Source: a virus | Lineage: Duplodnaviria; Heunggongvirae; Uroviricota; Caudoviricetes | IMG/VR virus record: IMGVR_UViG_2531839193_000009 | Strand: one strand, 5' to 3' | Length of the DNA stretch: 10,946 nucleotides | Part shown: in pieces, positions 1 through 10,706 of the stretch | Numbering within the stretch: position 1 is the first letter of the stretch | Layout of the letters: every line of letters begins with the position of its first letter | Program-made: the position numbers and the translations under genes | The notes under the pieces: model-generated | The model's input: only the letters and a program-made list of their open reading frames with translations | What the model was told of the DNA's origin: nothing | Database searches by the model: none

Positions 1-191
1 TGTATGAATCCCGCCTGAAGGGAAAGCTGCACGTAATCAGCAAGCGATATACGCAGCGAATTGAGCGGCATAACCTGAATCTGAGGCAGCACCTGGCACG
101 GCTGGGACGGAAGTCGCTGTCGTTCTCAAAATCGGTGGAGCTGCATGACAAAGTCATCGGGCATTATCTGAACATAAAACACTATCAATAA
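1..191 (+). CDS. insB: IS1 InsB transposase, C-terminal fragment (partial at window edge)
   Basis: In frame with the 3' end of the insB ORF of the second IS1 copy (3204..3707); stop TAA at 189-191. Confidence 0.8.
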
Positions 192-206
192 GTTGGAGTC
201 ATTACC
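1..206 (+). mobile_element. IS1, 3' terminal 206 bp including right inverted repeat (window starts inside the element)
   Basis: Bases 1-206 are identical to 3517-3720 of the full IS1 copy in this window and continue to the canonical end ...GTTGGAGTCATTACC at 206. Confidence 0.9.
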
Positions 207-298
207 AAAAAAACCGCCGAAACGGGTTAAGTGCGGGTGCGTTGAGGATGCCTGACACATCAAAGGTGGCGGGAGATTACTCTCCCGCCTGGTCACTC

Positions 299-454
299 TT
301 ACTCTCTAGATTCGTAGTCTACGAAAACAGCGACCTCCGTCTGGCCGATTCGGATTCGTACCTCGCAGAGGTCTTTCCTCGTTACCAGTGCCGTCACAAT
401 GACGGTTAAACAGATGACGATCAGGGCGATTAACATCGCCTTTTGCTGCTTCAT
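299..454 (-). CDS. hok: Hok/Gef-family type I toxin, 51 aa (HokD/RelF-like)
   Basis: MKQQKAMLIALIVICLTVIVTALVTRKDLCEVRIRIGQTEVAVFVDYESRE closely matches HokD as I recall it (single TM helix, conserved C...C). ATG at 454-452 preceded by AAGGAGAAG Shine-Dalgarno. Confidence 0.85.
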   Translation of the reverse strand: MKQQKAMLIALIVICLTVIVTALVTRKDLCEVRIRIGQTEVAVFVDYESRE

Positions 455-511
455 AGCCTGCTTCTCCTTGCCTTTCGGCACGTAAGAGGCTAACCTACAT
501 TTGTGAGACAT
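299..511 (-). CDS. mok: Mok-like regulatory ORF, 70 aa, same-frame N-terminal extension of hok
   Basis: ATG at 511-509 opens a frame that runs into and shares the stop of hok, the arrangement recalled for chromosomal mok/hok pairs. Confidence 0.5.
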   Translation of the reverse strand: MSHKCRLASYVPKGKEKQAMKQQKAMLIALIVICLTVIVTALVTRKDLCEVRIRIGQTEVAVFVDYESRE

Positions 512-575
512 AGATTGGGCCTCAGATTAATGTTAAGCGTCTTGCAGGACGCGTAATGTTAACTGGGGCTTTTCT
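500..575 (+). ncRNA. sok: Putative Sok-like antisense RNA region (approximate placement)
   Basis: Possible promoter on + strand inside mok (TTGCCT 468-473, 17 bp, TAACCT 491-496) would give an RNA antisense to the mok start/SD. Ends not defined; placed by analogy with hok/sok. Confidence 0.2.
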
Positions 576-792
576 CTGTCTGCCTTACAGTGACATACCC
601 GAGGCAGACAGCCTCAAGCACCCGCAGCAATCTTACCGACACCGATAAGAAAACGCTATTTTTTATTGCCAGCACCATCTATCCAGGCTAGTTTATCTGC
701 GTCAGAACGGCGCAATGCGCTCGCCTGAGATACGTTTACTTGCCATGGTAACAACAGGTAACGGCAATTGCTGTTTCTGTTTTGTTTCCTTC

Positions 793-824
793 AAAAACCC
801 CGGACCATCAATCCGGGGTTTTTG
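793..824 (-). terminator. Rho-independent terminator, bidirectional, closing the minus-strand operon
   Basis: Stem CCCCGGA (798-804) / TCCGGGG (812-818), 7-nt loop, A5 on one side and T5 on the other; 5 nt past the stop of the 27-aa ORF. Confidence 0.75.
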
Positions 825-828
825 TTTG

Positions 829-912
829 TTAACCCCAACGGCAAATCGAATACACCACCAGCGCCACCGCCATCGCAATTCCTACCGTGGTGAATGCCTC
901 AGGCCAGGTCAT
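829..912 (-). CDS. 27-aa hydrophobic peptide MTWPEAFTTVGIAMAVALVVYSICRWG (not in ORF track, below its size cutoff)
   Basis: ATG 912-910 overlaps the TGA of the upstream gene (ATGA); GGAGG 7 nt upstream; single predicted TM segment; stop TAA 831-829 just before the terminator. Confidence 0.4.
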   Translation of the reverse strand: MTWPEAFTTVGIAMAVALVVYSICRWG

Positions 913-1274
913 TGATTCACCTCCTGCGGTGGTTCCGGTAGCGGCATCCAGTGAGTTGAGCTCTCTACTTCAACGCCGTCTTTGTCCACAAAAGCCATCT
1001 TATTCCCGCCACGAGTGGGGCAAAAAACCTTATCCCAGGAACCGGGGAATACATTCCCGAGATCATCGAGAAGAATCACATCGCAATATTCAGCAGGAAC
1101 TGCATCACTACAGCTTATCCAGCCAGCCGGAGCTACCGGAGAGTTGCCAGCCTTACGCATGGCCATTTCCACGATTTCAACCATATCTCCTGGTGGAATT
1201 TTACAAAGTTGCCCAATACATTTCTGCTGCCTGGCATATTCGAGAATGTGCTCCAGTTTGGTTCGATTAATCAT
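909..1274 (-). CDS. Hypothetical protein, 121 aa, five Cys, no family recognised
   Basis: ORF track; start ATG 1274-1272 overlaps upstream stop (TAATG) and stop overlaps the next start (ATGA). Confidence 0.6.
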   Translation of the reverse strand: MINRTKLEHILEYARQQKCIGQLCKIPPGDMVEIVEMAMRKAGNSPVAPAGWISCSDAVPAEYCDVILLDDLGNVFPGSWDKVFCPTRGGNKMAFVDKDGVEVESSTHWMPLPEPPQEVNQ

Positions 1275-1939
1275 TATTTATCTCCCTTAAGCATGGCAGC
1301 GCGGCAGGCGTTCCAGCCATCAACATAATCAAACGTATTACTATCGTTTGGCCCGATTTCATCCGGCACTATCGGCTCTGGTTGGATAGTGACGTTGGCA
1401 AAGGCAGCACGCAAACCGGTTTTAATTTCTTCGATTTCATCAGAGCCAAGCGATGAATCTGACAGTGCGTGATGGAATGCGTAAGCCATGTCGTCGTTTA
1501 CTGCAACCGGCACTGCCGGCGCTGCGTAAAGCGGTGTTATATCTGCCCGAAAATCACATGCTTTATGCAGTCGTACCCAACACTCAACTTCCGCTTTGTC
1601 AAAATATATAGCAGTGAACGTATTAGATTCCTGGTCAACTTGAGTAAACGTCACCTTCCACGCTACAGCTACGGCTTTCCATCCATCAGGTTGTCGCATT
1701 CGCGGGGCAGCATAAAGCTCATGCATTCCATCAGGCAGCGAGTGACCCACATACTCACCGAACCCGTCAATACACATGCCCCCATCTTCAACAATGCATT
1801 CCGCTACAGGCTCTGCTTCCAGTGATGCCAGAGCGATAAGCGCCAGTTCACGAATTTCACCGCCGTCTATATCGTCAATATCATCGCGGCCAGAAATGTT
1901 AGCCAGCCATTGCAGTCGCTCTTTGGTAATAGTGGTCAT
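1274..1939 (-). CDS. Hypothetical strongly acidic protein, 221 aa
   Basis: Longest ORF here; ATG 1939-1937 overlaps the HNH stop (ATGA); about 39 Asp/Glu versus 17 Lys/Arg; LYAAP motif occurs twice. Confidence 0.65.
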   Translation of the reverse strand: MTTITKERLQWLANISGRDDIDDIDGGEIRELALIALASLEAEPVAECIVEDGGMCIDGFGEYVGHSLPDGMHELYAAPRMRQPDGWKAVAVAWKVTFTQVDQESNTFTAIYFDKAEVECWVRLHKACDFRADITPLYAAPAVPVAVNDDMAYAFHHALSDSSLGSDEIEEIKTGLRAAFANVTIQPEPIVPDEIGPNDSNTFDYVDGWNACRAAMLKGDK

Positions 1940-2301
1940 GCCGTAGCCCCTTCTTGATATTTTTCAAACCAGAACACAACCGGGTCAGATTTCATTTCAA
2001 CCAATCCCATACGAACCAGCGCTTTGCCTTTCCCGGACGCAAGGAATTCACGACGACCATCACTGATAATTCGTCGATAATCTTCCAGGCTACTGCAATG
2101 CTTGTGCAGATTGCATGGGTGGCATGCTGGTACCATGTTGGATATATCGTCACGTTCCTGGTGAAGCATATTTCCATCAAAACGAATGACCGGTTTTACA
2201 TGGTCTGCATGCCACTTTTCGCCAAGTTCGCAGCCGCAATAAGCGCAGCGACCACCGAACTTCATGCGCAGTTCTGCACGTTGTTTTTTCGTCAGTGCCA
2301 T
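1936..2301 (-). CDS. HNH endonuclease, 121 aa
   Basis: From the internal ATG at 2301: CAYCGC...HADHVKPV...N...ACHPCNLHK, a classic HNH/zinc-finger motif; AAGGAAA Shine-Dalgarno upstream. Confidence 0.8.
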   Translation of the reverse strand: MALTKKQRAELRMKFGGRCAYCGCELGEKWHADHVKPVIRFDGNMLHQERDDISNMVPACHPCNLHKHCSSLEDYRRIISDGRREFLASGKGKALVRMGLVEMKSDPVVFWFEKYQEGATA

Positions 2302-2302
2302 A

Positions 2303-2521
2303 TCAGCTTTCCTTATACGGATTAATTTTATTGTGCAGTGTGTTGAATGACGCCCATACCACGTCGTTATACAATTCAATAACTGGCTCAATTATTTTTC
2401 CGATTATCCAGACAAAAATTAGCGGGGATATCGGTGTCATCAACACGATAAACAGAATGAGAAACAGGAATTCTGTTGTTCTACTCTTTCGCGGATATTT
2501 TTTTCTAAATAATGTAACCAT
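2303..2521 (-). CDS. Small membrane protein, 72 aa (basic N-terminus, hydrophobic core)
   Basis: ORF track; FLFLILFIVLMTPISPLIFVWIIG hydrophobic segment; stop TGA ends 1 nt before the HNH start; weak SD, so start uncertain. Confidence 0.45.
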   Translation of the reverse strand: MVTLFRKKYPRKSRTTEFLFLILFIVLMTPISPLIFVWIIGKIIEPVIELYNDVVWASFNTLHNKINPYKES

Positions 2522-2613
2522 TCATTACCGCCCTTTCGAGCGGTCTCCTGATGATTTGAGGGTGCAGAAATCCCTCCGGTTAAGGATTAAATTTTTAACA
2601 GTGCTAAATTTAA

Positions 2614-2954
2614 TTATTCAGTTCTGGATTTTGTCGCCCTGCGTATCCGCGCTTTCGCGTTACGCTCAATCTGTATCAGCTTTTCTATATTTCTCCGCCT
2701 TTCCTGTTCCTCCTGGCGCAATAGCCTTACATCATCTGCCAGTCTGGTTTCTCTTTTTGCCACAGAGAGCATCCAGTCAAACGGCTCCACAACCGCACCG
2801 CAGATTTTACAGCGGACCTGACGCTCTTTTTCGTCAACCCGGACAGAGGCGTGATGGCAATATGGTCTTTCCGATGGTTCATAAAGAAAATTAACCTGAT
2901 TACGTGGGTCATCCTCTTTTACCGGAAATAAAACGATATTGCTTAACTCATCTT
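2614..2954 (-). pseudogene. 3' portion of a Zn-ribbon-like phage gene, cut at its 5' side by IS1
   Basis: Frame identified by the 112-bp repeat shared with 4983-5094, in which both mismatches are synonymous; encodes ...VRVDEKERQVRCKICGAVVEPFDWM...RRATKSRTE, stop TAA 2616-2614. Confidence 0.5.
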
Positions 2955-3009
2955 GGTGATGCTGCCAACTTACTGATTTAGTGTATGATGGTGTTTTTGA
3001 GGTGCTCCA

Positions 3010-3285
3010 GTGGCTTCTGTTTCTATCAGCTGTCCCTCCTGTTCAGCTACTGACGGGGTGGTGCGTAACGGCAAAAGCACTGCCGGACATCAGCGCTATC
3101 TCTGCTCTCACTGCCGTAAAACATGGCAACTGCAGTTCACTTACACCGCTTCTCAACCCGGTACGCACCAGAAAATCATTGATATGGCCATGAATGGCGT
3201 TGGATGCCGGGCAACAGCACGCATTATGGGCGTTGGCCTCAACACGATTTTACGTCACTTAAAAAACTCAGGCCGCAGTCGGTAA
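3010..3285 (+). CDS. insA: IS1 InsA, 91 aa
   Basis: ORF track; N-terminal CxxC...CxxC zinc finger, then HTH, as expected for InsA. Confidence 0.9.
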
Positions 3286-3707
3286 CCTCGCGCATACAGC
3301 CGGGCAGTGACGTCATCGTCTGCGCGGAAATGGACGAACAGTGGGGCTATGTCGGGGCTAAATCGCGCCAGCGCTGGCTGTTTTACGCGTATGACAGTCT
3401 CCGGAAGACGGTTGTTGCGCACGTATTCGGTGAACGCACTATGGCGACGCTGGGGCGTCTTATGAGCCTGCTGTCACCCTTTGACGTGGTGATATGGATG
3501 ACGGATGGCTGGCCGCTGTATGAATCCCGCCTGAAGGGAAAGCTGCACGTAATCAGCAAGCGATATACGCAGCGAATTGAGCGGCATAACCTGAATCTGA
3601 GGCAGCACCTGGCACGGCTGGGACGGAAGTCGCTGTCGTTCTCAAAATCGGTGGAGCTGCATGACAAAGTCATCGGGCATTATCTGAACATAAAACACTA
3701 TCAATAA
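3204..3707 (+). CDS. insB: IS1 insB reading frame (made as InsAB' by -1 frameshift in IS1)
   Basis: ORF track frame overlapping the insA 3' end; 3' part identical to window bases 1-191. Confidence 0.85.
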
Positions 3708-3762
3708 GTTGGAGTCATTATGAGGTAGCCTGAGTTTAACGGACACTCCTTCCTGAAATAGA

Positions 3763-4071
3763 ATGGCATCAGAAGGAGCTAATAATGAGCAGAAAACCCA
3801 ACGTTACTCTAAAGAGTTCAAAGCCGAAGCTGTCAGAACGGTTCCTGAAAATCAACTTTCGATCAGTGAAGGCGCTTCCCGATTATCTCTTCCTGAAGGC
3901 ACTTTAGGACAATGGGTTACCGCCGCCAGAAAAGGGCTCGGTACTCCTGGTTCCCGCACGGTGGCTGAACTGGAATCTGAAATTCTGCAACTGCGTAAGG
4001 CGTTAAATGAAGCTCGCCTTGAGCGAGATATATTAAAAAAGCAACAGCGTATTTTGCACAGGAGTCGCTGA
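3763..4071 (+). pseudogene. IS600 orfA, altered: 1-bp deletions in two A-runs change the N- and C-termini
   Basis: A4 at 3793-3796 versus A5 in the other copies puts the canonical ATG (3785) out of frame; A6G at 4035-4041 versus A7G changes the C-terminus to KQQRILHRSR. Confidence 0.7.
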
Positions 4072-4120
4072 AAAATACGCGTTAATCGAACAATGGCGAC
4101 AACAATTTCCCATTGAAGCG

Positions 4121-4939
4121 ATGTGTCAGGTATTTGGTGTATCCAGGAGCGGTTATTACAACTGGGTACGGCATGAACCCTCAGACAGAAAACAAAGTGA
4201 TGAGCGGCTAAAACTGGAGATTAAGGTGGCACATATCCGCACTCGCGAAACATATGGAACCCGGCGGCTCCAGACGGAGCTGGCAGAGAATGGCATCATC
4301 GTTGGTCGTGACCGACTGGCACGTCTTCGTAAGGAGCTAAGGCTACGCTGTAAGCAGAAACGCAAGTTCAGAGCGACTACGAACTCGAACCACAATCTGC
4401 CAGTTGCGCCAAATCTGCTGAACCAGACGTTCGCTCCTACAGCACCAAATCAGGTCTGGGTGGCGGACCTGACGTATGTTGCCACACAGGAGGGATGGTT
4501 GTACCTCGCTGGCATCAAAGATGTTTATACGTGCGAAATTGTCGGCTACGCCATGGGAGAGCGCATGACAAAAGAGCTGACAGGTAAAGCCCTGTTTATG
4601 GCGCTCAGGAGCCAGCGCCCACCTGCCGGGCTAATCCACCACTCTGATCGAGGTTCACAGTACTGCGCATACGATTACCGGGTCATACAGGAGCAGTCTG
4701 GTCTGAAAACATCAATGTCGCGTAAAGGTAACTGTTACGACAACGCTCCGATGGAAAGCTTCTGGGGAACGCTGAAAAATGAGAGCCTGAGCCACTATCG
4801 TTTTAATAACCGGGATGAAGCCATCTCAGTAATACGGGAATACATTGAGATTTTCTACAATCGTCAGCGTCGTCACTCTCGTCTGGGGAATATCTCCCCG
4901 GCAGCCTTCAGGGAAAAATATCATCAGATGGCTGCTTAA
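4121..4939 (+). CDS. IS600 orfB, transposase catalytic (DDE) part, 272 aa frame intact
   Basis: ORF track; the same protein appears disrupted in the inverted copy at 9437-10304. Confidence 0.8.
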   Translation: MCQVFGVSRSGYYNWVRHEPSDRKQSDERLKLEIKVAHIRTRETYGTRRLQTELAENGIIVGRDRLARLRKELRLRCKQKRKFRATTNSNHNLPVAPNLLNQTFAPTAPNQVWVADLTYVATQEGWLYLAGIKDVYTCEIVGYAMGERMTKELTGKALFMALRSQRPPAGLIHHSDRGSQYCAYDYRVIQEQSGLKTSMSRKGNCYDNAPMESFWGTLKNESLSHYRFNNRDEAISVIREYIEIFYNRQRRHSRLGNISPAAFREKYHQMAA

Positions 4940-4981
4940 AAAAGAACAAATGGTAGTGTCCGCTATTGCCAGTACACCTCA

Positions 4982-5110
4982 TACAGAGGCGTGATGGCAA
5001 TATGGTCTTTCCGATGGCTCATAAAGAAAATTAACCTGATTACGAGGGTCATCCTCTTTTACCGGAAATAAAACGATATTGCTTAACTCATCTTCTGGTT
5101 TTATTTCCAT
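4982..5110 (-). pseudogene. 5' portion of the Zn-ribbon-like gene, cut at its 3' side by IS600
   Basis: ATG 5110-5108 with AGGAGAGGAG SD (alternative ATG 5167); frame MEIKPEDELSNIVLFPVKEDDPRNQVNFLYEPSERPYCHHASV ends in a stop supplied by the IS600 terminus (4981-4979). Confidence 0.5.
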
Positions 5111-5167
5111 GCTCCTCTCCTTTGATGCGAATGCCAGCGGTAATTGAAGCCTGATAGCTAATTTCAT

Positions 5168-5590
5168 TCACAGTATCGCCTCCTGAAAATTACCCTGATA
5201 GAAAGCCAGTACACGCTGCATAGCTTCGCTCTTCCGGCACTCGCGACAGATTATATTCAGGCGCCTGTCGTAGCGGCGTATTTCTCCGTCAGGTAATGAC
5301 CAGATAAGGTCCGGATCAACAACAACCGGTTTCCTCACCTTTACTCTCGAGAGTTTTTTGCGGGCGCTTTGCCAGTCCTTGCGAGCCTGTTCAGACGGGA
5401 ATAAGCCGTAGCCAGAATTATATACATCACCACTTGCGACCAGTTCTATGCATAAGCGACCGACAGACGCACGACTGATACCTGTTTCATCTGACAACTG
5501 CCGAATCGTGACCCGACCGTCCTGATGCACGAGTTCCACAATTCGCGTCTTCAGTTCTTCCCGCTGTTCGGGAGTAAAAGGTTTCGCCAT
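5168..5590 (-). CDS. Helix-turn-helix DNA-binding protein, 140 aa
   Basis: ORF track; AGGAGG SD 6 nt upstream; segment VTIRQLSDETGISRASVGRLCIEL resembles a winged-helix/HTH. Confidence 0.7.
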   Translation of the reverse strand: MAKPFTPEQREELKTRIVELVHQDGRVTIRQLSDETGISRASVGRLCIELVASGDVYNSGYGLFPSEQARKDWQSARKKLSRVKVRKPVVVDPDLIWSLPDGEIRRYDRRLNIICRECRKSEAMQRVLAFYQGNFQEAIL

Positions 5591-5604
5591 AAATCCTCCT
5601 GAAA

Positions 5605-6351
5605 CTACTTAACAACCCTCGAATGGCTAACATTCGGACGCCAGCTCTCCCAGTTAAAATTCACCCAGCGCCCGCCGTTCATGACCATGCGATCCATCAC
5701 CCGCTCGCCGAGCAATGTTTTCATCACCTCATAGTTCAGGTTTGTCAGCATCCCCACGCTGCGCATCGACGCTGTCCGGCGATCAACAATCTGGTGCAGC
5801 ACCACCTGCTCGTTTTTCGTCTCGCGCTGAATGCCAATTTCATCAAGAACCAGCAGATCCACTTCGCACAGCTCCCGCAAAAATTTTTCGCCTGACTGCC
5901 CGTCGTCATAGCTGGCGTGCAGGGCGCTCATAACATCAGCCACGGTAACCACAATCACTGTCTGACCGTCTTTCAGCAGGCGATTCCCGATAGCTGCCGC
6001 TAAGTGATTCTTCCCGGTACCAGGTTTTCCGCTGAACGCAAAATTTGTACACCCGGTCATCAGTTCATCGGCGATGGATTTCGCCTGGCTTAACGCGTAT
6101 CGCTGGCCGTCGTTCTGCACCTGGTAATTCGCAAACGAGCATTTACGGTGCAACGGCTGGATGCCTGAGCGATTCAGAATTTTTTCCACCCGCAACTGGC
6201 GATTCAGGCGGTTGATCTCCTCGCTACGTTTCTGGCCTTCAGCAAGTTGCCACTCGCGCCACTCCGCTACCGTTCTGAATGGGGCGGTTACATGTGGCGG
6301 GGTCAGTCGGCGGATGCGTTCCAGAACGCCGCCTGTCGCAATATTTTTCAT
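5605..6351 (-). CDS. DnaC-like helicase loader ATPase (YdaV-like), 248 aa
   Basis: Walker A GKPGTGKNHLAAAIG and Walker B LLVLDEIG; AGGGGG SD; directly downstream of the initiator-like gene. Confidence 0.85.
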   Translation of the reverse strand: MKNIATGGVLERIRRLTPPHVTAPFRTVAEWREWQLAEGQKRSEEINRLNRQLRVEKILNRSGIQPLHRKCSFANYQVQNDGQRYALSQAKSIADELMTGCTNFAFSGKPGTGKNHLAAAIGNRLLKDGQTVIVVTVADVMSALHASYDDGQSGEKFLRELCEVDLLVLDEIGIQRETKNEQVVLHQIVDRRTASMRSVGMLTNLNYEVMKTLLGERVMDRMVMNGGRWVNFNWESWRPNVSHSRVVK

Positions 6352-6706
6352 GGTCCGTTACCCCCTGAAGCCTGGCGGGATCGCACTGTCCGGCAACGAG
6401 ACGGTGTTAACCTGTCGGAGCAACGTCTCAGGCCGAACACCTTTCGGCGCGAACAGGCCCTGGTATTCATTGGCGATGCTGTGTCGAATCACCTGCTCAG
6501 GTGTAAAACCCTGCTGACGGAATTTTTCCAGTTCCCGTATCGCCCCGTTAGCGCCCTGCTCCGTTCGAATCGGTTTTCGCAATGCCTGTCTGAACCGGAC
6601 CCACTCATGCCAGAGTGTTTCCGGCAACCAATCGGGCAGCTCAATAGCCTCCGGCTCGAATTTTTTAGACGCTCGTTTTTGGCGAGGGGGAGATCAGTAT
6701 TTAGAT

Positions 6707-6744
6707 CTTCCTCTTCCTCTTCCTCTTCCTCTTCCTCTTCCTCT
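6707..6744. repeat. (CTTCCT)6 hexanucleotide microsatellite, coding poly-Glu in the initiator-like gene
   Basis: Six perfect tandem CTTCCT units seen directly. Confidence 0.9.
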
Positions 6745-6745
6745 G

Positions 6746-6833
6746 GTAACGCTTTTTGATCCGTTTGTGTAACGCTGGCAGCGTTACCTTTTCGTTTCAG
6801 TTCGCGTATTTTTGTTACTCGCTCGTTTGTAAC
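6746..6833. promoter_or_regulatory. Array of GTAAC/GTTAC sites including the 19-bp palindrome GTAACGCTGGCAGCGTTAC (6769-6787); candidate iterons or origin
   Basis: GTAACGC at 6746, palindrome 6769-6787, GTTAC 6814, GTAAC 6829, spaced 15-27 bp, inside the linker-coding part of the initiator-like gene. Confidence 0.35.
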
Positions 6834-6977
6834 CGCCCGTTTTTTTTAGAGCTTTTTCCGTTATGACGTTCAAAGTTAGGTAGAGAAAGCCCACCGTCAT
6901 TTTCGACCAGCCATCCAACCTGAATTAACGCATCAGCAAAACCAGACATAAAAGTGATGCGATCTATTGCACTTTTT

Positions 6978-6996
6978 GTAACGCCGCGAGCGTTAC
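6978..6996. promoter_or_regulatory. Second copy of the 19-bp palindrome (GTAACGC-CGCGA-GCGTTAC)
   Basis: Same arms as the other two copies; lies inside the initiator-like coding region. Confidence 0.35.
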
Positions 6997-7169
6997 AATC
7001 TGCATTACCGTCTATCATTTGTTGATCCGCCCATGCCCAGAAGCGAATAACCTTCCCTAATGCGGCATCTGGATCAATATTCAGAATCTCAGCAAGCCTG
7101 AATATTTCCGGCTTATCCGGCGTAATAACCTCGAGCTTTATCCAGTTTGAAGCCATTTGTTTTCACCTT

Positions 7170-7188
7170 GTAACGCTCGCAGCGTTAC
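7170..7188. promoter_or_regulatory. Third copy of the palindrome (GTAACGCT-CGC-AGCGTTAC), just upstream of the initiator-like gene RBS
   Basis: Sits 14 nt upstream of the ATG at 7156, next to the AAGGTGA SD; candidate operator or 5'-UTR hairpin. Confidence 0.4.
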
Positions 7189-7233
7189 ATTTAACTGATA
7201 CCGAACAAAACAATCCGGCACGATTAATTTCAA

Positions 7234-7539
7234 TCAATGCACTACGACAGAATCGCCGGGCGACCCACCACCGCTGAAATGTGCTTTCCGGTAAACGGCC
7301 TGGACAGCATCATCATGCGCATCAATTGCCGTACTCAACGCTTCCTGCGCCGCCAGTAATGCACGGCGTTCCAGGGTATCGAAGATACAGAGTCGGTGAC
7401 GCAGCTCACGCGGAAGAATTGCCAGAACCGCAGGGATCAGTTTCTGAATTTTTTCCCTTTGCGCTTTCGTTTCACCTTTCAACCAACGGTGATAGATATT
7501 CTGCTGATTGTTCCAGTCCTTGCCTGGTACCAGAGACAA
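7234..7539 (-). CDS. Hypothetical protein (at least 101 aa) downstream of dicC; N-terminus unresolved
   Basis: Frame is open back to the dicC TGA and has no canonical start (track start is TTG); the ATG at 7642-7640 that overlaps the dicC stop is 1 nt out of frame. Confidence 0.45.
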   Translation of the reverse strand: MSLVPGKDWNNQQNIYHRWLKGETKAQREKIQKLIPAVLAILPRELRHRLCIFDTLERRALLAAQEALSTAIDAHDDAVQAVYRKAHFSGGGSPGDSVVVH

Positions 7540-7638
7540 TTCGCCGCCCCCCTGCCGCAGATATTCTTCAGTAATTGCGTTAGCGACCCACGCCTGCCCT
7601 TTTTCGGCTGCCAGGGCAACAGCACTGATTCGATGTGC

Positions 7639-7866
7639 TCATGCCTGATTTTCATGAATCACCTTCCAAGGTCGTTTTGCCTTACGATATTCGTCATAAA
7701 CTTTGGGGTCGTACTGAAGTTCCCCGCCAGATGCCTCTTGCAGGCGCATCGCGCGACCTTCAGGAACCAGTTCCCCCCATGCAGCAATGCTTGCCAGCCT
7801 AACTCCTGCGGCATTGGCAAGCTTTGTTTTGCTGCCAAAAAACGCTATAGCATCAATTTTCAACAT
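7639..7866 (-). CDS. dicC: DicC-like Cro-type regulator, 75 aa
   Basis: Divergent from the DicA-like gene; AAGGAG SD; sequence and length resemble DicC as I recall it. Confidence 0.75.
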   Translation of the reverse strand: MLKIDAIAFFGSKTKLANAAGVRLASIAAWGELVPEGRAMRLQEASGGELQYDPKVYDEYRKAKRPWKVIHENQA

Positions 7867-7942
7867 ATCGAGCTCCTTAGATTTTCCTAAGGAAACTAGA
7901 TCGTAGAGAAACCTAAGTCAAGAAAAATTAGAATTCCCTAAT
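7867..7942. promoter_or_regulatory. Divergent promoter/operator region with two TTAG-N6-CTAA operators
   Basis: TTAGATTTTCCTAA (7877-7890) and TTAGAATTCCCTAA (7928-7941), between the two divergent regulator starts. Confidence 0.55.
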
Positions 7943-8350
7943 ATGAAAAACGAAACCTTCGGTGCTCGCCTCTTACATAGGCGTAAAAAATTAAAACTGT
8001 CTCAGGCCGCATTAGGTAAGCTGGTCAAAGTGGCTCACGTAACAATTTCTCAATGGGAAAGAGATGAAACACAGCCGGCGGGGAAAAGATTATTCGCACT
8101 GAGCCAAGCGCTTCAGTGCTCACCGACTTGGCTTCTTTTTGGGGATGAAGATAAACAACCAGGCGAACCGATCCCGGATAATCAGCCAGCCATTCTGACA
8201 GAAGATCAAAAAGAGTTACTTCAACTGTTCGACGCACTGCCTGAGTCAGAGCAAAAGGCCCTGTTGTCAGAGATGCGTGCTCGAGTTGAAAATTTCAACA
8301 AACTTTTTGAAGAACTACTCAAAGCTCGCAAAAGAAGCGCAAACAAATAA
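7943..8350 (+). CDS. dicA: DicA-like XRE-family repressor, 135 aa
   Basis: N-terminal HTH (LSQAALGKLVKVAHVTISQWER) and C-terminal PESEQ...EMRARVENFNKLFEELLKA, matching DicA from memory. Confidence 0.8.
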   Translation: MKNETFGARLLHRRKKLKLSQAALGKLVKVAHVTISQWERDETQPAGKRLFALSQALQCSPTWLLFGDEDKQPGEPIPDNQPAILTEDQKELLQLFDALPESEQKALLSEMRARVENFNKLFEELLKARKRSANK

Positions 8351-8382
8351 TCCCCTTTTTTCTCCACACCCTGTAATAAAAA

Positions 8383-8410
8383 GCACAAACTTTCAAACAC
8401 TTGTGTTTTT
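8383..8410 (+). terminator. Weak intrinsic terminator after the dicA-like gene
   Basis: GCACAA/TTGTGT stem with a 12-nt loop, followed by T6. Confidence 0.35.
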
Positions 8411-8424
8411 TACATCAAAAAACT

Positions 8425-8476
8425 TAGGTTTTTCTACACAAAAATCTTGACCGCCCACCTTAGGTTATTCTAAATT
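8425..8476 (+). promoter_or_regulatory. Repressor-controlled promoter for the ydfA-like operon (P-dicB analogue)
   Basis: TTGACC (8447-8452), 18 bp, TAAATT (8471-8476); operator TTAGGTTATTCTAA (8460-8473) between -35 and -10, plus imperfect TTAGGTTTTTCTAC (8425-8438). Confidence 0.5.
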
Positions 8477-8552
8477 TCATTCATCAAGACACCGCACGGT
8501 GTTCTCAGCAAACAGTTCCGCTACCCCGGCGTTAAGGGGAAATGGGGTCAAC

Positions 8553-8708
8553 ATGAATACTATCGATCTTGGCAACAACGAATCTCTGGTGTACGGCGTG
8601 TTCCCCAACCAGGACGGCACATTCACCGCCATGACGTATACCAAAAGCAAAACGTTTAAAACCGAAGCTGGCGCACGTCGTTGGTTGGGAAGACATTCAG
8701 GTGAGTAA
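8553..8708 (+). CDS. ydfA: YdfA-like small protein, 51 aa
   Basis: MNTIDLGNNESLVYGVFPNQDGTFTAMTYTKSKTFKTEAGARRWLGRHSGE; first gene after the dicA-like gene as in Qin; track ORF starts at an upstream GTG. Confidence 0.65.
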   Translation: MNTIDLGNNESLVYGVFPNQDGTFTAMTYTKSKTFKTEAGARRWLGRHSGE

Positions 8709-8720
8709 AATGAACGAGAC

Positions 8721-9010
8721 TGAGGTAGCCTGAGTTTAACGGACACTCCTTCCTGAAATAGAATGGCATCAGAAGGAGCTAATAATGAGCAGAAAAACCC
8801 AACGTTACTCTAAAGAGTTCAAAGCCGAAGCTGTCAGAACGGTTCTTGAAAATCAACTTTCGATCAGTGAAGGCGCTTCCCGATTATCTCTTCCTGAAGG
8901 CACTTTAGGACAATGGGTTACCGCCGCCAGAAAAGGGCTCGGTACTCCTGGTTCCCGCACGGTGGCTGAACTGGAATCTGAAATTCTGCAACTGCGTAAG
9001 GCGTTAAATG
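8721..9010 (+). mobile_element. IS600-like left-end fragment (290 bp), truncated inside orfA
   Basis: Matches 3721-4009 of the full copy (with A5 rather than A4); identity stops at 9010/9011. Confidence 0.85.
8785..9010 (+). pseudogene. IS600 orfA, 3'-truncated
   Basis: Canonical MSRKTQRYSKEF... start; frame runs into unrelated sequence after 9010. Confidence 0.75.
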
Positions 9011-9443
9011 TTGGATAAAATTCGCAATCTGGACTGTTCAGCAAAATTCACTGAGCACAATTTTGTGTCGAGCGAATACACCGACTCAACCGGGCGCAAA
9101 CTCCCAATGTACCAAATCACCAAAAACGGCTTCGTTTTCCTGGTGATGGGCTTCACGGGCAAAAAAGCCGCCGCATTCAAAGAGGCATACATTGCTGAGT
9201 TCGACCGCATGGAGGCCGAACTGCGCCAGAATAACACCCCACCTGCTGACAAGATGATTCCGGGTGATGGTCGCACTCTGGTTGTTCACTTCGACAAATT
9301 CGGCAATGTCGAATTCACCGAAACCGTTCCTGATGGCGCACTGGTCTGTCCCCTGGAGACTTTCCGGTTTTATCTGGAAAAACAGGGATGGACTCTTGTT
9401 AACCGGGGCGCAATTAAAAATATGACTGTGGAACAATTACTTT
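9011..9443 (+). pseudogene. Rha-family phage regulatory protein fragment, truncated at both ends by IS600
   Basis: Motif YQITKNGFVFLVMGFTGKKAAAFKEAYIAEFDRME typical of the Rha domain as I recall it; no native start, 3' end cut at 9443/9444. Confidence 0.55.
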
Positions 9444-10304
9444 TGAGGTGTACTGGCAATAGCGGACACTACCATTTGTTCTTTTTTTAAGTCAGCCATC
9501 TGATGATATTTTTCCCTGAAGGCTGCCGGGGAGATATTCCCCAGACGAGAGTGACAACGCTGACGATTGTAGAAAATCTCAATGTATTCCCGTATTACTG
9601 AGATGGCTTCATCCCGGTTATTAAAACGATAGTGGCTCAGGCTCTCATTTTTCAGCGTTCCCCAGAAGCTTTCCATCGGAGCGTTGTCGTAACAGTTACC
9701 TTTACGCGACATTGATGTTTTCAGACCAAACTGCTCCTGTATGACCCGGTAATCGTATGCGCAGTACTGTGAACCTCGATCAGAGTGGTGGATTAGCCCG
9801 GCAGGTGGGCGCTGGCTCCTGAGCGCCATAAACAGGGCTTTACCTGTCAGCTCTTTGTCATGCGCTCTCCCATGGCGTAGCCGACAATTTCGCACGTATA
9901 AACATCTTTGATGCCAGCGAGGTACAACCATCCCTCTGTGTGGCAACATACGTCAGGTCCGCCACCAGGCCTGATTTGGTGCTGTAGGAGCGAACGTCTG
10001 GTTCAGTCAGATTTGGCGCAACTGGCAGATTGTGGTTCGAGTTCGTAGTCGCTCTGAACTTGCGTTTCTGCTTACAGCGTAGCCTTAGCTCCTTACGAAG
10101 ACGTGCCAGTCGGTCACGACCAACGATGATGCCATTCTCTGCCAGCTCCGTCTGGAGCCGCCGGGTTCCATATGTTTCGCGAGTGCGGATATGTGCCACC
10201 TTAATCTCCAGTTTTAGCCGCTCATCACTTTGTTTTCTGTCTGAGGGTTCATGCTGTACCCAGTTGTAATAACCGCTCCTGGATACACCAAATACCTGAC
10301 ACAT
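9437..10304 (-). pseudogene. IS600 orfB with several frameshifts
   Basis: Split into two track ORFs (9437..9949, 9858..10304); single-base indels relative to the intact orfB at 4121-4939. Confidence 0.8.
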
Positions 10305-10706
10305 CGCTTCAATGGGAAATTGTTGTCGCCATTGTTCGATTAACGCGTATTTTTCAGCGACTCCTGTGCAAAATACGCTGTTGCTTTTTTTAATGTATCT
10401 CGCTCAAGGCGAGCTTCATTTAACGCCTTACGCAGTTGCAGAATTTCAGATTCCAGTTCAGCCACCGTGCGGGAACCAGGAGTACCGAGCCCTTTTCTGG
10501 CGGCGGTAACCCATTGTCCTAAAGTGCCTTCAGGAAGAGATAATCGGGAAGCGCCTTCACTGATCGAAAGTTGATTTTCAAGAACCGTTCTGACAGCTTC
10601 GGCTTTGAACTCTTTAGAGTAACGTTGGGTTTTTCTGCTCATTATTAGCTCCTTCTGATGCCATTCTATTTCAGGAAGGAGTGTCCGTTAAACTCAGGCT
10701 ACCTCA
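9444..10706 (-). mobile_element. IS600-like element, full length, inverted; orfA intact, orfB frameshifted
   Basis: Ends TGAGGTGTACTGG... (9444) and ...GGCTACCTCA (10706), reverse complements of the IS600 termini. Confidence 0.9.
10340..10642 (-). CDS. IS600 orfA, intact, 100 aa
   Basis: MSRKTQRYSKEF...ILKKATAYFAQESLKNTR with the A7G slippery heptamer (10384-10391 on +). Confidence 0.85.
   Translation of the reverse strand: MSRKTQRYSKEFKAEAVRTVLENQLSISEGASRLSLPEGTLGQWVTAARKGLGTPGSRTVAELESEILQLRKALNEARLERDTLKKATAYFAQESLKNTR

Follow-up and report, generated by a model that had tools for sequence, protein, structure and literature searches.

The window analysed here is one draft contig in its entirety, AKNC01000062.1 of Shigella sonnei 3226-85 (10,946 bp, 2012), which starts within an IS1 and finishes within an IS600. 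Between positions 2614 and 5110, a gene read on the minus strand is cut in two by a block of two insertion sequences. The first is recognised as an IS1 (about 768 bp, inverted repeats GGTGATGCTGCC... and ...GGAGTCATTACC, insA and insB frames) at 2955-3720 on the plus strand, where the left repeat, insA (3010-3285) and insB (3204-3707) are present and the right repeat is short by its last 2 bp, leaving 766 bp without the terminal CC. A called IS1 gene at locus L027 has the Pfam match DDE_Tnp_IS1, and the other IS1 right end of the window, at 1-206, finishes ...CATTACC. The second element, at 3721-4981 on the plus strand, is an IS600 of the IS3 family (about 1264 bp, TG...CA termini, imperfect inverted repeats, orfA with HTH_Tnp_1, orfB with rve, 3-bp target duplication). 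Neither terminus is truncated (TGAGG...CCTCA), the element shares 99.8% identity with sequences annotated 'IS3-like element IS600 family transposase', and compared with other copies it shows three homopolymer deletions of 1 nt each. Pfam matches were obtained on called IS600 genes, and the 3-bp duplications TAC and TAG are seen at the loci L010 and L017.

When the two parts of the interrupted gene are joined across this block, they form a reconstructed frame of 118 aa (357 bp) that begins with the ATG at 5110 and is open throughout; an in-frame ATG further upstream, at 5167, would give 137 aa. The 3' part (gene nt 17-357 including the stop) lies at 2614-2954 and the 5' part at 4979-5110, both on the minus strand, the latter forming a 43-aa truncated ORF that stops at the TGA of the IS600 terminus. 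The first-pass annotation had joined the halves into one protein with a CHH...CKIC motif (C38-H39-H40 ... C54-K-I-C57) and proposed a search for the intact gene in related prophages, and such a gene does exist. A protein identical to the reconstruction is encoded without interruption in prophage P2 of S. sonnei 53G (L007, 10481-10837) and in other Shigella genomes, and related copies of the gene are present in 4011 of 5426 complete E. coli genomes.

The reconstructed protein matches the profile phrog_1621, a family annotated as function unknown, along its whole length (E 3e-56, residues 1-117 on profile positions 1-120 of 134). NCBIfam gives no hit and Pfam no family above cut-off, the best Pfam match, Zn_Ribbon_TF (PF08271), scoring 21.5 bits against a cut-off of 29 and so falling below the gathering threshold. 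A sequence search of the PDB returns S27E only (E 0.55), and Foldseek against the PDB finds nothing at E<=0.001, its best match being a zinc ribbon (E 0.2). Zinc ribbons in general have four conserved Cys/His ligands on two beta-hairpin knuckles. In the present family C38, H40, C54 and C57 (CxH...CxxC) are invariant in 27 homologues, and a structure model built on P0001, which is 96% identical to the reconstructed protein, has two short beta-hairpins bearing the Cys/His residues (strands 43-46 and 51-54, pLDDT about 60-76). While TFIIB-type and S27E-type zinc ribbons are the best Pfam, PDB-sequence and Foldseek matches, all below significance, they have CxxC instead of CxH at the first knuckle and lack the 55-residue basic helix that follows the knuckles in the 118-aa protein. 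We describe the product as a putative zinc-ribbon plus long-helix protein. The gene itself is inactive in the window, whether the join described below is real or not.

Part of the gene is found on both sides of the IS block. A direct-repeat search of the window gives 2843-2954 and 4983-5094 as a 112-nt direct repeat with 110/112 positions identical (98%), as the first-pass annotation had noticed, and a match of such length in 11 kb cannot be due to chance. Its two mismatches (2878 T / 5018 C and 2905 T / 5045 A) are both synonymous in the minus-strand frame, as claimed, but the count was incomplete. The true homology is 113 bp (2842-2954 / 4982-5094) and includes a third difference at 2842 / 4982 (G versus T; GTC / GTA, Val43) that is likewise synonymous. 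The synonymous share of random substitutions in this segment is 20%, and three out of three then has p ~0.008. A target-site duplication is a short identical direct repeat around one element, about 8-11 bp for IS1 and 3-4 bp for the IS3 family; this repeat is 113 bp long, has three differences and flanks two unrelated elements, so the earlier view that it is no such duplication holds. The true duplications, seen in other genomes, are AACTCATCTT for the IS1 and TAC for the IS600.

The origin of the flanks was assigned by comparison with complete S. sonnei genomes, 53G among them (P1 = L017, P2 = L007). Positions 1-3720 correspond to prophage P1, located at ttcA, and positions 3721-10609 to prophage P2, located beside modABC. 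The first stretch is colinear with 53G L017 (12521->8802) at 99.97%, with 1 SNP in 3720 nt, IS1 included; the P1 prophages of 53G and six further strains match it at 99.7-99.97%. The second stretch is P2 with the IS600-interrupted gene, matched by a single colinear HSP (CP044151; L010 11872->4993, 99.65%), and 53G L007 matches 4982-10609 at 99.72%.

The gene content follows the same division. The P1-derived block (1-2954), from a Rac-like prophage at ttcA, contains the IS1 right end, hok-like, DUF551, 221-aa, HNH and DUF4014 genes and the 3' part of the 118-aa gene. The P2-derived block (4982-9443), from a lambdoid/Rac-like prophage adjoining modABC, contains the 5' end of the 118-aa gene, DUF977, a DnaC-like loader, a broken replication initiator, YdaT-like, Cro-like, cI-like and DUF1391 genes, an IS600 fragment (8721-9010) and a truncated pRha-family gene. 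What comes after the 118-aa gene is DUF4014-HNH-DUF551 in P1 and QueH in P2, and the DUF4014 gene (2303-2521, minus strand) identifies the left flank as P1, its place in P2 being taken by the QueH-family gene. The right flank is marked as P2 by its DUF977 gene (5168-5590, minus strand), which is an exact protein match to P2 loci and only ~90.6% identical in DNA to the P1 counterpart (L017).

The same assignment can be made within the repeat. In 53G the P1 and P2 alleles differ only at gene nt 66, 93 and 129, all synonymous. The 3' piece of the window is identical to the 53G P1 allele and departs from the P2 allele at 3 positions, and the 5' piece is identical to the 53G P2 allele. Copy 1 (2842-2954, minus strand; G2842, T2878, T2905) thus carries the P1 allele and copy 2 (4982-5094, minus strand; T4982, C5018, A5045) the P2 allele, and therefore the repeat is gene nt 17-129 seen once per prophage. 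The idea that the flanks come from two diverged prophage copies is borne out by these exact matches of each half, and the comparison supports P1 and P2, two different S. sonnei prophages, as their likely sources.

Each prophage copy of the gene also has its own insertion, as had been suggested. In P1 an IS1 with a 10-bp target duplication follows nt 26, and 7/7 S. sonnei P1 loci examined have it at precisely that position. The order in 53G P1 is IS1-...CATTACC-AACTCATCTT-CTGG, the intact gene having one copy of AACTCATCTT, and the P1 junctions of other strains continue from the duplication through 139 bp to an IS600 with a TAG duplication (L017). In the window the left copy of the duplication stands at 2945-2954, and the right copy that other strains have has been lost through deletion. 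In P2 the gene of many strains has IS600 after nt 129 with a TAC duplication (at L010 the junction reads ...CAACCCGTAC-IS600-TACAGAGG...), of which the right copy is at 4982-4984 in the window. Many drafts and 7 complete genomes have an IS600 at precisely this P2 position. Gene calling yields the 43-aa ORF in 7 complete S. sonnei genomes as well, every one of them with the ordinary P2 arrangement, and a search for a second copy of the hybrid through a 62-aa version of the truncated ORF found only short draft contigs ending at IS600.

We turn to the junction between the two elements, which joins IS1 nt 766 to IS600 nt 1. The exact junction 29-mer is absent from 39 other loci and from viral_contigs, genome_contigs and metagenome_contigs, the source contig itself excepted. 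A 200-nt junction query against 5426 E. coli genomes and 72,556 plasmids gives only two-piece hits, with IS1 and IS600 apart. The contig has a second unique IS600 left-end junction at 10706/10707. Composite transposons, with the same IS twice and one short duplication, were considered and rejected: the ends of the IS1-IS600 block come from different families, and the inverted IS600 copies that bracket 3721-10706 have outer flanks (TTA / ATG) with no duplication. Recombination within the gene is also rejected, for it would give either an intact gene or the order A2-IS600-B-IS1-C1 (A, 3' part; B, repeat; C, 5' part).

It is very probable that the repeat is the overlap of two prophage gene copies, the IS1-broken P1 copy and the IS600-broken P2 copy, joined through a deletion and an IS600 exchange. 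The contig would join a P1 piece (gene 3' part plus IS1) to a P2 piece (IS600 plus gene 5' part), and therefore nt 17-129, between the two insertion sites, appears twice. For the first step, we propose a 141-bp deletion that would have taken the terminal 2 bp of IS1 together with the 139 bp separating it from P1's own IS600, leaving the left end of that IS600 intact, as in an IS600-associated adjacent deletion; this 139-bp P1 segment differs from the DUF977 region of the window at several bases. The second step would be an exchange inside IS600 between the P1 copy and the P2 copy, whether through cellular homologous recombination or through a switch of copies by the assembler within the 1.26-kb repeat, and the two are about equally likely. 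Recombination in a 53G-like chromosome would invert ~1.17 Mb, because P1 and P2 are opposite in orientation. The C at 3846 in the IS600 of the window is also found in the P1 IS600 copy of 6/7 strains, while 4/4 P2 copies in the gene have T. This shared C may be taken as weak evidence for an exchange inside IS600, since the same SNP is also present in IS600 copies elsewhere.

The overlap of two gene copies needs two extra events, a deletion and an exchange, which counts against it. On the same side stand the ordinary P2 arrangement of all 7 complete genomes with the 43-aa ORF, a junction found nowhere else searched, a draft contig with ends in IS elements, and the unique junction at 10706/10707.

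The alternative that survives best is an assembly chimera, in which P1 and P2 are separate in 3226-85 and the assembler bridged a gap through IS1/IS600; the alleles and insertions would then be real, and the adjacency and the "flanking repeat" would not. We give it slightly less than an even chance. In its favour, both ends of this draft contig lie within insertion sequences (IS1 at the start, IS600 at the finish), and no other sequence searched has the same arrangement. The IS copies also show homopolymer indels of the kind expected from a collapsed or low-quality consensus, in contrast to the nearly error-free unique DNA. The junction at 10706/10707 conflicts with 53G and CP044151 at a locus that is otherwise colinear. 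In addition, gene nt 130-357 do not differ between P1 and P2, and P2 mate pairs could for that reason have been assigned to a P1 contig. A real rearrangement is favoured by a junction that coincides with IS600 nt 1, as expected if genuine reads cross a genuine junction somewhere in the genome, and by complete genomes, which show several other IS600-mediated rearrangements at these same P1/P2 copies. The draft L033 also has a complete IS600 on the pRha side, so the region does vary between strains.

A one-step transposition is improbable. The left end of the P2-gene IS600 would have attacked the IS1 end in P1 intramolecularly, making the junction and the fusion at once without homologous exchange. 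An intact IS600 left end abutting a target 2 bp inside IS1 does look like a transposition product, and one event is more economical than two. However, the C at 3846 is that of P1's IS600 and not the T of the P2 copies, P1's own IS600 lies only 139 bp away in the right orientation, from where the junction is more simply obtained by a local deletion, and IS3-family elements usually move by copy-out-paste-in through a circle. A local duplication at one locus, either an IS1-IS600 composite with an overlong target duplication or a tandem duplication followed by divergence, would suit a repeat directly flanking the IS block and is nonetheless next to impossible, given that the outward-facing IS ends belong to unrelated transposases, the three differences are exactly the standing P1/P2 allelic ones, the sequence outside the repeat is P1-specific to the left and P2-specific to the right, and in other genomes the IS1 and the IS600 insertions each come with a short duplication of normal length.

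The P2 insertion site has a feature of its own. Beside the right end of IS600, separated from it by the 3-bp duplication and one base, is a 17-mer (4986-5002) with 14/17 identity to the IS600 terminus, inverted; about 0.01 IS600-end-like 17-mer matches are expected per window. In E. coli a second, different IS3-family element, which carries a group II intron, is inserted at the same gene nucleotide; its end weakly resembles the 17-mer, and the plasmid annotations searched for this element attach no name to it. The IS600 insertion in the DUF977 gene of P1, inspected by eye, has no end-like sequence alongside. Insertion of IS3-family elements beside sequences resembling their own ends has been reported for IS911, and the 17-mer beside this IS600, with the second element at the same nucleotide, would be a likeness to it. 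The site after nt 129 could be a natural IS3-family hot spot created by an 18-nt IS600-end mimic one target-duplication length away, a proposal we consider doubtful. If true, it would be a naturally occurring case of end-mimic-targeted insertion and would explain how two IS3-family elements (IS600 in S. sonnei P2, the intron-bearing one in E. coli) came to the same nucleotide.

Among known systems, the E. coli K-12 Rac prophage (adjacent to ttcA, with the ydaS/ydaT/ydaU/ydaV/ydaW region) is a near relative of both prophages. P1 adjoins ttcA in six strains, and P1 and P2 both have the series Cro/YdaS-like, YdaT, YdaU-type initiator, DnaC-like and DUF977 (YdaW-type); they are mosaic relatives and not Rac, and differ from it in the region downstream of DUF977. 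Expansion of IS1 and IS600 and recombination between IS copies have been described in the comparative genomics of Shigella. The present locus resembles this IS-mediated prophage decay in the many IS1/IS600 copies of its degenerate prophages, in the strain-dependent flanks of the same IS600, and in genes broken by simple insertions with normal target duplications. It differs in that the P1/P2 fusion with the IS1 (nt 766)/IS600 junction occurs in this draft contig only.

The case is one of ordinary IS-driven genome decay or of an assembly join; the process is already known, no new mechanism is involved, and its importance is little beyond housekeeping. It illustrates how IS elements can come to be flanked by a long "direct repeat" without a duplication event, when paralogous prophage genes broken at different sites are brought together across a shared IS. 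It also cautions that sequences placed side by side across an IS copy in a draft Shigella assembly may not be physically adjacent. A genuine join would be a strain-specific exchange between prophages ~1.2 Mb apart, a further instance of a well-known process.

A repeat search of the window gives a direct repeat of 112 nt with 98% identity (2843-2954 and 4983-5094), with one copy on each side of an IS1-IS600 block. Its two mismatches (2878 T / 5018 C and 2905 T / 5045 A) are both synonymous in one minus-strand frame. The homology is one base longer, reaching 2842 and 4982, where the copies differ a third time (G/T), again synonymously (Val43, GTC/GTA). Random substitutions here would be synonymous in only 20% of cases, so three out of three has a p of about 0.008. 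When 5110..4983 is joined to 2842..2614, an open frame of 357 nt encoding 118 aa (MEIKPEDEL...CHHASVRVDEKERQVRCKICG...KSRTE) is obtained. The near-identical copies described in the first-pass annotation therefore stand with small corrections (the extra base and the third difference), and its minus-strand frame joining the two halves is indeed open.

The window is the complete draft contig AKNC01000062.1 (GCA_000268045.1, 1-10946 reversed) of Shigella sonnei 3226-85, a lineage II strain (AKNC00000000; PMC5447701). The first base of the contig falls within an IS1 and the last within an IS600, and protein look-ups find its DUF977 and DUF4014 proteins in complete Shigella genomes. BLAST against Shigella prophage loci divides it into two blocks, 1-3720 and 3721-10609. 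The first is colinear (99.7-99.97%) with P1, a Rac-like prophage, in strain 53G and six other strains; one SNP in the 3720 nt separates it from 53G. P1 adjoins ttcA in six strains and has the gene order DUF977, the 118-aa gene, DUF4014, HNH, a 221-aa gene, DUF551 and hok. The Hok/Gef-family toxin ORF (299-511, minus strand) lies immediately inward of the IS1 with which the contig opens and is annotated as hokD-like in related E. coli prophages. The second block is a single colinear HSP (99.65%) with P2, a lambdoid/Rac-like prophage, of CP044151.1, and its portion 4982-10609 matches P2 of 53G at 99.72%. P2 adjoins modABC, and a QueH-family gene comes after its 118-aa gene. Unique DNA shows few differences: this block has a change in the length of a hexamer repeat, a single SNP and a single homopolymer indel, and the rest are homopolymer indels and a few substitutions within IS600 copies.

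The P2 block has several features of its own. A 19-bp palindrome (GTAACGC-N5-GCGTTAC), for which none is expected by chance, occurs three times about 200 bp apart (6769-6787, 6978-6996, 7170-7188), in and around the N-terminal part of the replication-initiator gene (ORF 6815-7156), and the copies may be binding sites for an initiator or a regulator. This gene is split into fragments in the window, and its reading frame contains a perfect hexamer array, (TCTTCC)6.5, at 6706-6744, whose length varies by strain (in the window, 12 nt more than in CP044151 and 6 nt fewer than in 53G). Further along, the first 290 nt of an IS600 (8721-9010) are fused to a truncated pRha-family gene (9008-9490), giving a 77-aa hybrid ORF (8785-9018); this fusion is old, because the same structure is kept in 53G and CP044151.

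We turn to the insertions that interrupt the gene. The IS1 of the window (2955-3720) is without the final CC of its right end (a complete end is present at 190-206), and the adjoining IS600 (3721-4981, termini TGAGG...CCTCA) is 99.8% identical to elements annotated as IS600. In P1 of 53G, the junction reads ...GCTTAACTCATCTT-IS1-AACTCATCTT CTGGTTTTATTTCCAT..., that is, IS1 lies in the gene with a 10-bp duplication. Beyond it come 139 bp (the first 26 nt of the gene, the intergenic spacer and the 3' end of the P1 DUF977 gene), and then an IS600 with TAG on both sides, a layout common to all seven S. sonnei P1 loci. In P2 of CP044151 the junction is ...TTTTCGTCAACCCGTAC-IS600-TACAGAGGCGTGATGG..., with IS600 after gene nt 129 and a TAC duplication. 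The resulting 43-aa ORF has the QueH gene beyond IS600 in all seven complete genomes carrying that ORF; a 62-aa reading of the truncated remnant is indexed in 136 blocks, all of them short draft contigs that stop at IS600.

In 53G the P2 copy of the gene is intact, and its product is identical to the reconstruction. Compared with it, the P1 gene of 53G (rebuilt by removing IS1 and one duplication copy) has exactly three differences in 357 nt (nt 66, 93 and 129), all synonymous. The 5' piece in the window (gene nt 1-129) has no difference from the P2 allele and three from P1, while the 3' piece (nt 17-357) has none from P1 and three from P2. The repeat begins with the IS1 target duplication (nt 17-26, with IS1 after nt 26) and extends to the IS600 insertion point. 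Because the two halves match the two alleles exactly, the repeat is gene nt 17-129 read once from each allele, and its synonymous differences are standing variation between two once-functional paralogues. The earlier proposal of two diverged prophage copies with the same gene hit differently in each is thus supported, with IS1 in P1 and IS600 in P2. Target duplication is ruled out as the source of the repeat, since the true duplications here are 10 bp and 3 bp, and a composite transposon is likewise rejected for the IS1-IS600 block.

The reconstructed protein gives a full-length match to phrog_1621 (E 3e-56). A database search gives 148 homologues, all in Enterobacterales and nearly all labelled "hypothetical" or "putative bacteriophage" proteins. 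Across 27 aligned homologues (down to 45% identity), C38, H40, C54 and C57 are invariant, as is much of the basic C-terminal segment LRxEExxRRxNIEKLIQIERNAKARIRR. The AlphaFold model of a family member (mean pLDDT 74.5, helix above 90) has two short hairpins bearing the Cys/His residues, followed by a single long helix (residues 63-117). Its top Foldseek match in the PDB, the TFIIB N-terminal zinc ribbon, is not significant (E 0.2), and the Pfam TFIIB zinc-ribbon model scores 21.5 bits on the reconstructed protein, below the threshold of 29. No NCBIfam model matched, and a search for a solved relative found none. Taken together, the invariant residues, the modeled hairpins and the non-significant TFIIB-like matches make "Zn-ribbon-like" a fair description. 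The reconstructed locus has a match in 4011 of 5426 complete E. coli genomes, where intact copies are common, so that the uninterrupted homologue anticipated earlier exists well beyond P2 of 53G. In Rac-like prophages the gene, annotated as a 118-aa "hypothetical protein", stands between DUF977 on its upstream side and the DUF4014 gene just downstream, in some cases adjoining them and in others separated by one or two genes.

A different IS3-family element (end TGAAGTGGTCAACAAAAACTGGCCACC) follows the same gene nt 129 in two E. coli loci (L026, 10129/10130; L030, 1041/1042), a point that corresponds to window 4981/4982 and leaves the same 43-aa product. This element contains a group II intron, whose reverse transcriptase gene lies at L026 10707-12230. 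Next to the site, the gene 17-mer GAGGCGTGATGGCAATA (4986-5002 and 2846-2862) has 14/17 identity to the IS600 terminus GAGGTGTACTGGCAATA, where chance would give about 0.01 matches of this kind per window. The 17-mer stands in inverted orientation to the IS600 right end, from which the 3-bp TAC duplication and one base separate it. The second element at the same nucleotide and the IS600-end-like 17-mer suggest a possible insertion hot spot that an end mimic may direct.

How did the P1 and P2 pieces become adjacent? The 141 bp (139 bp + CC) that separate IS1 and IS600 in P1 are missing from the window, where IS1 nt 766 abuts IS600 nt 1. A simple exchange between the P1 and P2 IS600 would keep them, so a further 141-bp loss is needed. 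Since IS600 has kept its end intact and IS1 has not, we infer that P1 underwent an IS600-associated adjacent deletion. This could have happened if a new IS600 copy had inserted at TTA in the end of IS1 and then recombined with the IS600 lying 144 bp from it. The window IS600 has C at 3846, as does the P1 IS600 in six of seven strains, while all four P2 copies inserted in the gene have T. This weakly favors an exchange inside the element to the right of 3846 over direct attack by the IS600 of P2, since IS600 copies at other places carry this SNP too. In 53G, P1 lies reversed at about 1.95 Mb and P2 forward at about 0.78 Mb, in opposite orientations, and an exchange in a similar chromosome would presumably invert about 1.17 Mb.

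Whether this join exists in the cell or was made by the assembler is an even call. In favor of a real join, the novel junction falls exactly at the first base of IS600, and complete genomes have several other flank changes at these IS600 copies: after P1's IS600 comes the P1 DUF977 in 53G but DNA from the ttcA side in six strains, two loci (L015 and L018) have an inverted P1 late region, and P2 has extra IS600 insertions in three (L004-L006). Pointing to the assembler, no other sequence searched has the arrangement of this draft contig, and the P1 and P2 sequences do not differ over gene nt 130-357, where read pairs could be misattributed. The IS copies of the contig also contain homopolymer errors while the unique DNA is clean. 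The IS600 at 3721-4981 has single-base homopolymer deletions at 3797, 4041 and 4944 relative to most or all other copies, making orfA 102 aa instead of 100, and a G at 4171 absent from all other copies compared; these likely reflect errors of sequencing or consensus calling in the draft. Another junction at an IS600 left end, 10706/10707 (IS600 nt 1, in reverse orientation, against IS600 nt 1104), is likewise unique to this contig and at odds with 53G and CP044151, which have an IS600 without nt 1-96 beside a full copy. This argument is weakened, however, by a draft locus (L033) with a complete IS600 and an unrelated flank at that place, so the region varies, and the junction at 10706/10707 reflects a rearrangement particular to this strain or else a misassembly.

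The repeat has the same origin whether the join is real or assembled. What the window records is the ordinary IS-driven decay and shuffling of Rac-like Shigella prophages, a process already known, for which no new mechanism is needed.
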